Below, piece after piece: positions 35,745 through 55,463 of a stretch of DNA of 64,000 nt (positions are counted from its first letter, which is position 1; each line of letters starts with the position of its first letter). Source of the stretch: Terriglobia bacterium (GTDB taxonomy: Bacteria; Acidobacteriota; Terriglobia; JAJPHL01; JAPKYU01). Made by a program: the position numbers and the translations under genes. The DNA is taken from contig CBDCVK010000010.1 of assembly GCA_965223005.1 (NCBI GenBank), forward strand, positions 864,001 to 928,000, read 5' to 3'. The notes below the pieces were generated by a model. That model worked only from the letters and a program-made list of their open reading frames with translations, made no database searches and was not told the origin of the DNA.

Positions 35745-36224
35745 GCCAGCCTCGCGCCTCCAGTTATTATATCCGAAATCGGAAGCTCGGGTCCGAAGGA
35801 CGAGGCGATGCCGGAGGACGGGCCGGAGGGGAAAGCCGGGGGCGGCGAGGAGTTATTGGCGGGAGCAGTCGTGCTGCGCTGGCGGGACTCGCTTTGGTAG
35901 TAGGTCAGTTTCCGGACAGCACGTTGTACATGCAAGTGGGCTGGGTAGCAGCATGGGTAAACACTAACTGACTAGTGGAGACCTAAGCTTGAGTCGCGAG
36001 AGAGTAGCTGGCGTAGGATCTTGAGTCGAGCGAAGATTGAAATCGAAAATTCTCGCAAATTGGAACTGTGAGGGGCGGCCCGTCGGTGTTCCCCTGTTGA
36101 CGTCTACGACACAGAGGTGGGTTGCGCTGGAGTGAGAGATGAGAAAAAATAGGGGCGGGCAGGGTTTGGAAGCGTAGAACGGCTCCGGATTCCCACGGGC
36201 GAGTTTGTGGTGCAGCCGAAGGGC

Positions 36225-36980
36225 ATGGCAAAGCTGATTCTGAAGTACGAGACCAAGGTGCTCCAAGAAATCCCGCTAACGCGGCCCATTATCACCATCG
36301 GTCGAACCCCCGACAACGATGTGGTCATTGACAACCCGGCGGTCAGCACCCACCACGCCCGCATCTTTTTCGATGACGAAAAATTCAAGTTGGAAGATCT
36401 GAACAGCCTGAATGGCACCTTTGTCAATCAACAGCCCGTCCGCAACGCGTTCCTCAAGAACGGGGATGAGGTCTCGATCGGCAAGCATACTCTGGCCTAC
36501 CAGGACGAGGGTGGGGCAATGCCTACCATGCAGATCCGCACTGAACAGCCCAAGGCCCTTCCCAAGCTGGAAGAGACCGTCGTACTCGACACACAGAAAC
36601 AACGGGAGCTGCTCCAAAAGGCCAGGATGGCCAACGGTTGGTTCTCGCCAGGCCCCGCGAAGGTGGGCACCCTCATTGTCGTGGGGGGCAACACCGGCCA
36701 GATGGAATACAACCTGACTAGCAAACTGACTTTGATCGGCAAATCGCCCCTGGCCTCGGTCAAGCTGAAGGGCTGGTTCGCTCCCGATGTCGCCGCAGTC
36801 ATCAACAAGCGTGAGGCCAGCTACCAGATCGCTCCCTCTGGCAGGGGCAGGCGCAGGGTCAGGCTCAATGGCCAGACGCTAGCCGGTCCGCAGGATCTGC
36901 GGGAAGGCGACCTAATCGAAATCGCCGGCGTCAAGCTGCAGTTCACTCTACATGCGCCAGGGGGCGGACGAAGATCCTGA
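36225..36980 (+). CDS. Tandem FHA-domain protein
   Basis: ITIGRTPDNDVVIDNPAVSTHHARI...DLNSLNGTFVN (canonical FHA); second degenerate FHA LIGKS...LNGQ...LREGDLIEIAG. Confidence 0.88.
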   Translation: MAKLILKYETKVLQEIPLTRPIITIGRTPDNDVVIDNPAVSTHHARIFFDDEKFKLEDLNSLNGTFVNQQPVRNAFLKNGDEVSIGKHTLAYQDEGGAMPTMQIRTEQPKALPKLEETVVLDTQKQRELLQKARMANGWFSPGPAKVGTLIVVGGNTGQMEYNLTSKLTLIGKSPLASVKLKGWFAPDVAAVINKREASYQIAPSGRGRRRVRLNGQTLAGPQDLREGDLIEIAGVKLQFTLHAPGGGRRS

Positions 36981-37027
36981 TGACCGCCAAGCAACTGCTG
37001 GAAATCGCCGGTGGCTCCCTTTGGTAA
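36980..37027 (+). pseudogene. Truncated start of a translationally coupled gene (possibly a PP2C/Stp1 phosphatase)
   Basis: ATG overlaps the FHA stop (TGATG); MTAKQLLEIAGGSLW*. The PP2C identity is inferred from the LEIAG start and the usual FHA-PP2C gene order. Confidence 0.35.
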
Positions 37028-37141
37028 GTAGAGCGGCTCGGCGAGTGGGGTCTTGAAGGGGGGGGGGACGAGTGTGGTTTACTTCCGGTCCACGGTTCCT
37101 CACAAGCTATTCCGAAAGAGGAATCGAATGAGGGGTACCTG

Positions 37142-37681
37142 ATGAAAACGCACCTGAAGTCTTTCGCAGTTTCCGTGGCGCTCTGCTTCTTCGTGGGGGG
37201 GGCGGCACAGGCAGACAAGCATGAGGCGGAGCGCATCGCCGAGGCGGAGAGCGCGGCTCCCAAGGCCATTACCAAGGATGCCACGATCAAAGCGCCGGAC
37301 GGCAAGGTGCTGAGACAGGGGACGAATGGCTGGACCTGCTACCCAGGCTCCGCAGCCATCGGGCCGATGTGTAACCGAACTCAGTGGGATGCGCTGCTCG
37401 GTGCCTTGCAGAAGCGTGAGGCGATCGACGTCAAGGAGTTCAGCGTGTCCTACATGCTGGCCGGCGAGGGAGAGGCCATCGGCGTCAGTAATTCAGATCC
37501 GTTCGCCACCGACCCAACCGCCAAGGACGACTGGGTCAAAGAAGGACCACACCTCATGATCTTGGTGCCAGATCCGGCCACTCTTGAGGGGCTTTCCACG
37601 GATCCGAAGGATCCTGTCTACGTGATGTGGAAGGGCACTCCGTACGCCCACATCATGGTCAAGGTCTCAAAAGAGAAGTAG
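37142..37681 (+). CDS. Exported conserved hypothetical protein
   Basis: Signal peptide (AAQA); AESAAPKAITKDATI, GTNGWTCYP, PMC, SYMLAGE, GPHLMI, YVMWKGTPYAHIM; SD-like GAGGGG. Confidence 0.8.
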   Translation: MKTHLKSFAVSVALCFFVGGAAQADKHEAERIAEAESAAPKAITKDATIKAPDGKVLRQGTNGWTCYPGSAAIGPMCNRTQWDALLGALQKREAIDVKEFSVSYMLAGEGEAIGVSNSDPFATDPTAKDDWVKEGPHLMILVPDPATLEGLSTDPKDPVYVMWKGTPYAHIMVKVSKEK

Positions 37682-37694
37682 GTGCGGACCTGAC

Positions 37695-37778
37695 GGACAA
37701 CGGAACGACCCGGATATCCTCATCGCCGGAGGCGGCATCCAGGGCGTGACACTCCTGCATGAACCGCGGGGTAGGTAG
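37695..37778 (+). pseudogene. Remnant of an FAD-dependent oxidoreductase N-terminus
   Basis: Frame reads GQRNDPDILIAGGGIQGVTLLHEPRGR*: a Rossmann GxGxxG motif with no start codon, stopping immediately after. Confidence 0.55.
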
Positions 37779-38115
37779 AGTAGACCCAGGGCGGCTTCCA
37801 AAGCCACACCGCCACCATCGCGGTACAGTAAGCGCTCAGCTACCTCTTTGTCAGTAGCAGTGCCGGATAGATCGCCCCTAACGGGCTAGCGTTTATCAAT
37901 CCCGGTTTCAGTTGGACGTATAGTCGGCTTATCGGAAACTGACCCACTACCCTCGCTTTTGTTTGAGACGGCACTGGGGCCACGACCAACACAATCCTAT
38001 TTACGCGGCGAACCTCTTGCGATAAAATCCAAGAAGGTGCTTCGAGAGCGGTCTTCTGCCTGAACATTTATCCCGGGTTCCGGCTGCGCTGGCGACTTCC
38101 CGACCTTCCCAGTAG

Positions 38116-53635: not shown

Positions 53636-55279
53636 CTACTCGGTCAGGGTGACTCCGATAAGGCTCTCCCCGACGTTGTAGCCAAACAGACCGAAGTCCA
53701 GTCCGGACGCCTCGATCCGGCCGCTTTGCAGGTCGGAGAAAAAGTTGGCAGTCAGAAACGTAGCGCCTTCGCTGCTGACTGGGAGCTGGCTGAGCACGCT
53801 GCTGTTGATCGTGATCTGGCCGTCGAAGCACGAGGCTGAGCACATGACGACGCCGAAAAGCAAGTCAGCATCGTTGACCGAAGCCACGAGCACACCGACC
53901 TGTCCATTGAGGTCGAGGCAGCTCCAGGTCATGGTCAGCGGTTGCGCCTGGCTGAAGGAAGTGCCCTGGACCCCGAAGTCGGTCACACTGGACAGGAGCC
54001 CGAAGGCCCCGAGCACCGTGTTGAACGGACCCACATCGGAACCGCCAGATCCGCTCAAAGTCCAGATGCCAGGCCCCAGCGCGCCGTTACCCAGTTCCGA
54101 TTCGTACCCGCCCGGCTGGCTCGGGCCAATTACTCGGGGGGAACCGGCAAAGGGACCATTCAAGGTTAAGGTCCCGGCGTCCAGCGGCTGATCCTTGTTG
54201 ATGAAGTTGATGAAATTGGAGACGCCCGGCGGGTCGTTGGGGTCGAAGCGGTACACGGCCACATTGCAGCCACCATCCACCGGTGGGAACCCGAACTCAG
54301 CCGTTGGGATGACGGCCTCAAAGCGGCGGAAGCTCGCGCTGAAGGTGTCCGGGGGCTGGAACCCAGGCACTGGGACAGGGAGCTGCGTCGTAAACCGGTT
54401 CACGCTGGCCACGCCGAACGATCCGTTGAAGAAGAAGCCGGGCGAGCCGCTGCTAGCCTGGTTGCAATTGCCCCTGAAGCCCCTGGGTTTAGTGACCCCG
54501 ATGGTCACCGTGTTGCTGCTCCCATTTTCGAACGCCACCTGCACCGGCAGGTAGCAGCCCTCGGGCGTGTCGCCCGGCACCCGGGCGTTGATCTGGTACA
54601 GGCCTACGAAGCCGGGAGCCAGCCCGGAGAACTCTACCACCGCCTGCCGTCCGCCGATCATCACGACCGGAGTTGTGGTCGTAGGTTGCCCGGCGCCAGC
54701 GGATCCGTCGGCAGGAGTTTCCTTGACCGGCCCAAGACCAGTGCCAAAGATGAGAACAATGCCGCCGGGGATGGTGGTGAAATCTGCTGTGTTTGTGGGA
54801 GTATTCCCCTGGGCGACAAAATTCAGCACGGCCCCCGGGCCGCGCCCGTTGGCGGCCTGGGAAAACAAGCCAGGAGCCGTTTCCACAACGGATACGTTCA
54901 CTGGGGCGCTGGTTCCCCCTGGCGTTTGCACGGTCACCTGGACCGTGCCCGTCGGCGTGCCCCAGGGCACCTGGGCGTTGATCTGCCCGGCGGACACGAA
55001 AAAAAGCGGCGCCGGCTGCCCACCGATGATCACCCGGGTGCCAACAATAACGGTCGGCAGCGGCAAGCTCACCGAGCCGCCGGTCGCCGACCCTAAATCG
55101 GAGCCGAAGATCGAGATGATCGACCCCTGAGCAATCGCACTTCCCGGGGCACTGCTGGGACGAAAGCTGGCACCATTCACCACGCCGCCCTCAAACACCA
55201 CGGGAGCCTGGGCGAAGAGCTTTCCGGCATTCACTACCAACAACCACAAGCAGGAAAAAACCACCGCTCGGAGCAGCAT
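53636..55279 (-). CDS. Exported IPT/TIG-domain protein (Solibacter TIGR03437-like)
   Basis: GVVNGASF, GSIISIFG, PLFFVSAGQINAQVP, APGLF, FGTGLG, GLAPGFVGLYQIN. Confidence 0.85.
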   Translation of the reverse strand: MLLRAVVFSCLWLLVVNAGKLFAQAPVVFEGGVVNGASFRPSSAPGSAIAQGSIISIFGSDLGSATGGSVSLPLPTVIVGTRVIIGGQPAPLFFVSAGQINAQVPWGTPTGTVQVTVQTPGGTSAPVNVSVVETAPGLFSQAANGRGPGAVLNFVAQGNTPTNTADFTTIPGGIVLIFGTGLGPVKETPADGSAGAGQPTTTTPVVMIGGRQAVVEFSGLAPGFVGLYQINARVPGDTPEGCYLPVQVAFENGSSNTVTIGVTKPRGFRGNCNQASSGSPGFFFNGSFGVASVNRFTTQLPVPVPGFQPPDTFSASFRRFEAVIPTAEFGFPPVDGGCNVAVYRFDPNDPPGVSNFINFINKDQPLDAGTLTLNGPFAGSPRVIGPSQPGGYESELGNGALGPGIWTLSGSGGSDVGPFNTVLGAFGLLSSVTDFGVQGTSFSQAQPLTMTWSCLDLNGQVGVLVASVNDADLLFGVVMCSASCFDGQITINSSVLSQLPVSSEGATFLTANFFSDLQSGRIEASGLDFGLFGYNVGESLIGVTLTE

Positions 55280-55463
55280 AGGACTGTCGCTCGGTGTAGA
55301 AGGAAATGCCGCGCGCAGATTATAGTTAGTTCCTGAAGCCTGGACAATGCCAGATGCGGAGTGGGAGCCTGGAGATGCTGAAGCTACTGGAGATGCTGTC
55401 CAATCGCCTCATCACGAATGGGGAACGCGCTCGGAGTGGCGAGCGATCGCCATAATCTTGCCT

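Follow-up and report, generated by a model that had tools for sequence, protein, structure and literature searches.

How did a small group of genes, bounded by the ends of an insertion sequence (IS) and devoid of a transposase, come to lie between the TPR and smc genes of a Terriglobia bacterium? The locus is found in a 64,000-nucleotide stretch of contig CBDCVK010000010.1 (the window), where the element occupies positions 35896-37951. The original prediction, made from the sequence alone, regarded it as non-autonomous, with IS-like ends and a perfect 8-bp target-site duplication, and as having brought its genes to this place in a single transposition. The first part of this proposal is supported. 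The terminus is that of a family of autonomous IS1-type elements, each end also carries a dyad belonging to one of two classes, and in related genomes the same frame surrounds different cargo. The explanation held somewhat likelier to be right than wrong is that a transposase-free IS1-type frame inserted once, in trans, and that its cargo was later exchanged by site-specific recombination at the two dyads.

The ends of the element and the helper transposase

The left end, GGTAGTAGGTCAGTTTCCG, begins at 35896 and the reverse complement of GGTAGTGGGTCAGTTTCCG finishes at 37951. The ends agree at 18/19 positions (21/25 and 31/43 when extended), and an 8-bp duplication, CTCGCTTT, directly abuts both, at 35888-35895 and 37952-37959. 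Ends, duplication and the 2,056-bp length are thus as predicted. The window has five inverted pairs of at least 18/19 identity, and an exact 8-bp flanking repeat is found with this one only; 20 shuffles of two-base blocks gave two inverted pairs, neither with a duplication. The predicted lack of a transposase is confirmed by open reading frame (ORF) families and by tblastn with three IS1-type transposases: there was no match between 35896 and 37951, and neither ORF is a transposase. With no IS1-type DDE transposase encoded, the element is not an autonomous IS1. It has the properties of a non-autonomous derivative, as its right terminus is identical at 16/16 and its left at 15/16 positions to the commonest autonomous terminus, and its duplication (8/8) has the length of the helper's. 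An Rfam scan of the element gave no match, and a promoter scan inside it nothing useful.

The features are given below. G000 is the element's own genome (96% complete) and G001-G005 are comparison genomes, of which G004 is 72% complete.

35888-35895, plus strand: left target-site duplication CTCGCTTT, also in G001
35896-35911, plus strand: left terminal inverted repeat (IR), 15/16 to the commonest terminus of autonomous IS1-type elements
35905-35938, plus strand: left 14-6-14 dyad, L spacer class, spacer GCACGT at 35919-35924
35939-35985, plus strand: left inner segment, type j1, conserved and common to many ends in the genus
36225-36980, plus strand: FHA-domain gene, 251 amino acids from the ATG at 36225, one clear FHA domain and a faint second
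37142-37681, plus strand: gene for a 179-amino-acid conserved hypothetical protein, signal-peptide-like N-terminus, no Pfam family
37692-37764, plus strand: gene scrap, GxGxxG-like start, common to the G003 module
37838-37908, minus strand: right inner segment, type i1, conserved
37909-37942, minus strand: right 14-6-14 dyad, R spacer class, spacer GCCGAC at 37928-37923
37936-37951, minus strand: right terminal IR, 16/16 to the commonest autonomous terminus
37952-37959, plus strand: right target-site duplication CTCGCTTT, in G001; one change in G002

Which transposase recognizes such ends? Family searches of five genomes gave a lead, weak IS1/IS6-type matches beside end-like sequences. At one such locus in G005 (L217) a transposase and passengers lie between two GGTAGTGGGTCAGTTTG ends with a perfect 8-bp duplication; the helper gene is intact (L217:5402-6250), and similar elements are present in G001. 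Among 110 transposase loci examined (two sets, 80 + 30), an IR pair is visible in 49, with an exact 8-bp duplication in 33 of the 49 and, in six further elements, a duplication scored one G out of register. The commonest terminus, GGTAGTGGGTCAGTTT, is found at 42 of 98 autonomous ends and is the same 16-mer as the right end of the window's element. The helper proteins pass Pfam DDE_Tnp_IS1 (PF03400; 30 and 35 bits, cut-off 24) and score 56-87 bits on NCBIfam NF033558, where the cut-off is 100. Plasmid relatives are annotated as IS1 family with a single ORF (HTH + DDE), and a Mesorhizobium loti plasmid (CP050295) has a 3,370-bp element with this terminal 16-mer and an 8-bp duplication. The helper group is presumably the one named ISMhu11. 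Autonomous elements with matching ends do exist (G005, G001 and CP050295), and the earlier guess of an IS1, IS6 or IS1595 type narrows to an IS1-type transposase. Helper-type transposases are present in 74 of 151 genomes of the class.

Other families were considered and set aside. There is no IS6 in G000; the IRs of IS1595 (seen in 2/6 loci) differ from these ends; copies of IS256 and IS1182 near the ends have ends of their own; and a Y1/RAYT enzyme, as for REP/REPIN sequences, has no PF01797 match in G000 or G003, and an 8-bp duplication is present. IS256 (about seven near-identical full copies) and IS1182 have recently expanded in G000 (C8:237560-240164 and other contigs), where some IS1182 copies interrupt IS256 and one pair lies inside a cargo element. 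In the window itself, 334 bp at 54953-55286 match at 76% identity a part of the cargo element at G000:C8:237226 that lies upstream of an IS256 copy.

The single helper copy of G000 (C10:1264134-1264859) is missing about 43 residues, the second catalytic Asp among them, and the ends of this IS1-type copy differ from the terminus discussed here at 4-5 of 16 positions. For these two reasons the frame is probably immobile at present. The surrounding element (C10:1263469-1266115, L495) carries passengers and its internally deleted transposase between perfect 17-bp IRs with no matching duplication.

The ends themselves are abundant. G000 has 62 end-like profile matches; the 19-mer, with up to two mismatches, is found in 41, 13 and 28 copies in three genomes of the same genus, in eight copies in G005 and in none in G004, and reversed-19-mer controls gave 0 or 1 match. 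An exact scan of species genomes yielded at least 114 stretches, and in 117 distinct ends the conserved sequence finishes abruptly with the terminal GG. Among 32 rows of paired cargo ends in these external genomes, in which one element is counted twice, 13 show an 8/8 duplication and five a 7/8 one. No helper transposase was found in 114 external loci (34 of them short), ORF clustering of the same loci revealed no recurring enzyme, and three matches read individually for a transposase had none (L087, L102 and L103; the first two have the look of chance matches to coding sequence). Miniature elements of 37-91 bp that consist of nearly only the two IRs, i.e. miniature inverted-repeat transposable elements of the same family, are seen at L114:4001-4037, L071:3929-4019 and L171. 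The literature searched, with ISfinder and subscription journals outside its scope, has no description of these ends.

Frame and cargo at the same site in related genomes

Did the genes arrive together with the ends? In G001 the same flanks (95-96% identity), the duplication and both ends enclose a 1,406-bp element with a methyltransferase-like gene (a faint FkbM match). G002 has the cargo of G001 and the right end, with one change in the right CTCGCTTT and the left end deleted. As this insertion surrounds unrelated cargo, frame and cargo have separate histories, and delivery of the window's genes by one transposition, as had been proposed, does not agree with the relatives. Since G001 keeps site, duplication and ends around another cargo, it is likely that the frame arrived by transposition and that the present cargo was swapped in later. 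In G003 the matches to the two flanks are separated by 39 bp, with no CTCGCTTT, and in G004 TPR and smc are adjacent without the element; because both lack it, the insertion postdates their split. The comparison with empty sites provides these two genomes without the element; as the G003 site has diverged, none of the compared relatives showed an exact empty allele, which would retain one copy of CTCGCTTT. A mobile origin would be in doubt had close relatives carried the FHA and hypothetical genes here in plain DNA, with no empty site and no IS with matching ends anywhere. This was not found in full: the relatives lack both genes at the locus, and matching autonomous ends exist.

Where, then, is the cargo found? 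The whole 2,056-bp cargo is single in G000 and intact in 0/5 relatives searched, its pieces being at separate sites. The hypothetical gene, the scrap and the right inner segment are found in G003 at a site orthologous to G000 C3:129872, and a homolog (85%) of the G001 cargo adjoins, at another place in G000, an R site that has no IS end. Identity of the right end of G000 to those of G001 and G002 stops at 37924, inside the dyad spacer. On the left, the inner segment and its G001 counterpart in this frame agree at only 80% of positions, compared with 92% for the 60-bp flank. Orthologous ends with a differing interior were seen in 8/13 ends between G000 and G001 and in 12/18 pairwise comparisons (loci examined). 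Counted from the terminus, several of the interior breaks come after 21-36 bp, within the spacer or next to it, and the homology of the family extends over about 100 bp.

Could this be a plain mobile insertion cassette (MIC), whose different interiors represent independent insertions at one target, or later deletions and insertions? The perfect duplication and near-perfect IRs would be expected of it, 5/13 orthologous ends retain their interior, and the loss of the G002 left end by deletion suggests that decay is common. Yet the duplications have no strong target consensus, which makes it unlikely that elements returned, exact to the base, to the same target at several loci, and the finding of cargo pieces behind other outer ends, with an intact cargo in none of the five relatives, also argues against it. 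The plain cassette is accordingly regarded as quite unlikely.

The cargo genes are themselves of a wandering type. The FHA protein, which had been read as a tandem-FHA protein, has an N-terminal FHA domain that passes Pfam (E 3e-25); its second half is faint (E 0.23 for FHA, 0.017 for YscD) and the two halves do not align; one domain of the proposed pair is clear. The gene is a mobile paralog (70% at the nucleotide level) of a chromosomal copy at G000 C10:1352815 and is found at unrelated places in G001 and G003 (two further places). The chromosomal paralog (C10:1352815-1353543, L065) adjoins a PP2C-type phosphatase gene and is likely to represent the source family of the mobile copy. The 179-amino-acid hypothetical protein has 2,881 relatives, with no Pfam family in any of 120 among the matches listed, and unnamed clusters only in the Atlas; in G003 it is within a module that ends at an R-type end, at another chromosomal site. 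Its earlier description as exported has a counterpart in a hydrophobic N-terminus, a prediction from the sequence, and one of the gene scraps reported along with it, at about 37710-37765, reads PDILIAGGGIQGVTLLHE, presumably the GxGxxG-like start of an FAD-binding domain. Proteins beside such ends elsewhere (L135:3281-3991, L078:7497-7994 and L072:3394-3825) resemble the hypothetical protein by eye and are possibly a favoured cargo family of these ends.

Dyad sites and the proposed exchange of cargo

The original prediction of plain IS-like ends overlooks a further motif. Each end of the element holds a 34-bp dyad with two 14-bp arms and a 6-bp spacer, of class L at the left and class R at the right; the left dyad (35905-35938) is worn, with three mismatches to the L pattern, and its outer arm overlaps the IR. 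Autonomous ends mostly continue with GA after the IR, and CCG is found in 0/98, whereas cargo ends continue with CCG and the dyad. G000 has 49 dyads, compared with 0 in one shuffle. By spacer, 27 have GCCGAC (R) and 22 GCGCGT or GGGCGT (L); by outer arm, 17 have an IS end, 20 no IS end, six a mutated IR and six another sequence. The six with a mutated IR are mostly in back-to-back junctions with an 8-bp spacer. Such junctions are present at G000:C2:224258/224267 and about eight similar places, also in G001 and G003; in them a mutated IR (CGTAG start) meets an intact one across a common 8-bp spacer, CCCGCCAG, an arrangement like that of a circle junction. A 10.9-kb block in G003 (L228) has CCCGCCAG on either side.

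In total 148 sites were scored, from G000 and the examined loci of G001 and G003, of which 131 have classifiable spacers and 17 were dropped. Inner segments never cross class: among sites with a recognizable inner segment, 47/47 L sites have j types and 52/52 R sites have i types. Outer types mix freely inside each class. The inner-arm variant AACTG accompanies 11/28 segments of type i1 and 0/23 of type i2 or i3, and stands behind both outer types. The commonest arrangement of neighbours is L+ ... R-, which with its mirror image makes up 13/30 neighbour pairs, and in distant genomes the L/R pairing is seen in nine of the ten elements classifiable at both ends (of 22; the pattern was picked post hoc). 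With two mismatches allowed, the dyad pattern is present in 36/301 genomes of the class; there was no match in viral contigs or in 300 phylum-wide genomes.

These data suggest a sequence of events. An IS1-type transposase acting in trans would have placed the frame in an ancestor common to G000, G001 and G002, as ends and duplication indicate. Paired crossovers, L by L and R by R, may then have exchanged the interior, much like cassette exchange between heterospecific sites; the breakpoints, the assortment of segments and the wandering cargo point to such a step. The enzyme would be a putative tyrosine recombinase. The outer arm matches in register the XerC-side arm (TTCCGATAA then G) of the dif-like site of the class, and it also matches the IntA att arm TCCGATAAG (PMC4928290); this resemblance suggests a tyrosine recombinase for the dyads. 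The dif-like site, TAACGTCTGATAA-GATATA-TTATGTAAACT, is single-copy and was found in 19/61 genomes (L443, L444, L445, L452-L467); it was not found in the G000 assembly.

Several candidate recombinases were discarded. A 596-amino-acid tyrosine recombinase next to one of the junctions belongs to the tRNA-island integrases, as do the gene stumps close to other sites. The 324-amino-acid Xer-like family of L034, presumably kin of IntA, uses a site of its own: none of 27 loci showed the dyad, and no member reached E<=1e-40 in G000. Xer-like 324-amino-acid recombinases of G001, G003 and other class members (L345-L371) have a small dyad GATAA-N6-TTATC just before the start codon. Host XerCD does not fit the dyad geometry, which is 14-6-14 with a XerD-type arm absent in register; serine resolvases show a loose association, 400-600 bp from the site in 3/10 inspected loci (of 15 matches), one of them broken. 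No integron integrase was seen among the 149 genes scanned of 268 near ends, where domains of Solibacter type agree with an Acidobacteriota host, and five recombinase ORFs in 4/113 external loci have no common family.

A number of observations weigh against exchange at the dyads, or against the frame's arrival in trans. A cognate recombinase was not found among the enzymes near the sites, and the inner arm is unlike the XerD-side arm TTATGTNAACT in register. Two sites switch spacer class between genomes, a change beyond the reach of same-class exchange by itself: one is of class R in both G000 and G001 but of class L in G002, and the other (C10:600843), of class R in G000, has an L counterpart in G001. 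AACTG is enriched behind the IS-type outer arm (8/14 vs 3/35), so linkage across the spacer is not fully broken, and since site copies are kin, the site tables do not represent independent events. Deletion or secondary insertion, and not a swap, may account for some of the 'different' ends: the interior of C2:133794 is alike for about 130 bp and that of C8:99916 partly so. Which cargo replaced the other is poorly resolved: informative sites slightly favour G000 and G001 as sisters (17 vs 11 and 11), and given that sisterhood there is a weak case for the FHA cargo as the newcomer. Finally, the element's own genome has no intact helper.

Some of these points would be accommodated if the interior of the same IS1-type frame had been replaced by homologous recombination or gap repair among the dispersed end repeats of 30-110 bp, possibly after transposase cuts, with the dyad passive or a binding site for another purpose. 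The 62 end-like copies in G000 would serve as templates, and the missing recombinase, the two class switches and the partial linkage across the spacer would be less puzzling. Against this, the dyad is highly conserved in two strict classes and is also found without IS ends; several breakpoints lie close to the terminus in spite of the far longer homology; and the L/R pairing appears again in distant genomes, if one allows for its post hoc choice. Homologous repair is therefore judged unlikely, though deserving serious attention, both as the process and in the minor role it gives to the dyad.

Might the ends be hybrids, in which a resolvase-type (res-like, multi-subsite) or hairpin-type element is nested in IS1 ends and served by a serine recombinase or a single-strand enzyme? 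A second conserved motif lies further inward in the ends, and resolvase genes are near a few sites. The arm TGTCCGGTA fits what we take to be a resolvase half-site, TGTCYNNTA, and the terminal GTAG tetramer presumably resembles that of REP elements. On the other hand, neither a Y1/RAYT gene nor, apart from a 67-amino-acid frame, a small resolvase is present in G000, the DNA folds weakly (about -9 to -13 kcal/mol per 100 nt, with no shuffle control), the 8-bp duplications suggest a DDE enzyme at the outer ends, and the IS1595 ends in these genomes differ. Both the nested structure and its proposed enzyme are thus highly improbable.

Relation to known systems and significance

Passenger-carrying IS1 elements, presumably of the ISMhu11 group, are the nearest relatives by terminus: the CP050295 element shares the 16-mer and the 8-bp duplication. 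The window's element differs from them in having no transposase and in the CCG and 34-bp dyad behind its IR, seen in none of the 98 autonomous ends. The term tIS for such passenger carriers appears in PMC7986276. TIMEs and MICs, according to PMC4133298, are non-autonomous, IR-bounded, gene-carrying units moved in trans, and TIME-RES has a res site and a resolvase gene. In its insertion the window's element is similar, with IR-bounded passenger genes and no transposase; the TIMEs described there have Tn3-family ends, whereas those here are of IS1 type and both contain recombination-like sites, of two classes; the element has no recombinase gene, and its frame persists as the interior varies. 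As in a MIC, passengers lie between IRs without a transposase; a cassette that moves as a unit to more than one site was not observed.

In exchange, the likeness is to the Acinetobacter dif modules (pdif) treated in PMC13141974. Both have an inverted pair of two-armed sites around genes, although pdif sites are 11-6-11 with XerC and XerD arms, and the dyads are 14-6-14 with no XerD-type arm in register. The modules of that source reside on Rep_3 plasmids; the dyads are chromosomal, in tRNA islands and IS1-type frames. The element departs from both MIC and dif module because its cassette is not a fixed unit and its site has no XerD arm. The Rhizobium etli IntA att site is presented in PMC4928290 as a 23-bp perfect palindrome, a bidirectional tyrosine-recombinase site without obligate directionality; it shares the TCCGATAAG arm with the dyad and differs at the centre, and the nearest IntA-like family tested uses its own site and not the dyad. 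An integron cassette (attC) can be dismissed, as the sites are inverted and of two classes, the 149 of 268 nearby genes contain no integron integrase and the element has no Rfam match.

What does the element signify? On a broader and more tentative view, held at somewhat less than even confidence, gene shuffling in Acidobacteriota may have two tiers, in which an IS1-type transposase spreads landing frames, each with two heterospecific recombination sites in its ends, and a hitherto undescribed recombinase swaps modules between these and IS-less site arrays in tRNA islands. This would amount to a natural recombinase-mediated cassette exchange, and the back-to-back ends 8 bp apart might be fossil circle junctions carried as spacer modules.

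ORF-based annotation displays none of the frame, ends or dyads. The transposase-free cargo family is widespread, with at least 114 exact end matches in species genomes, and is tied to a definite helper, which makes its mobilization testable. Frames of IRs and duplication can outlive their cargo, and to date or assign the arrival of genes from the flanking duplication would mislead at this locus. If the dyads are recombination sites, cassette systems of this kind would extend beyond Acinetobacter, here with two spacer classes, and might yield a new tool for cassette exchange.
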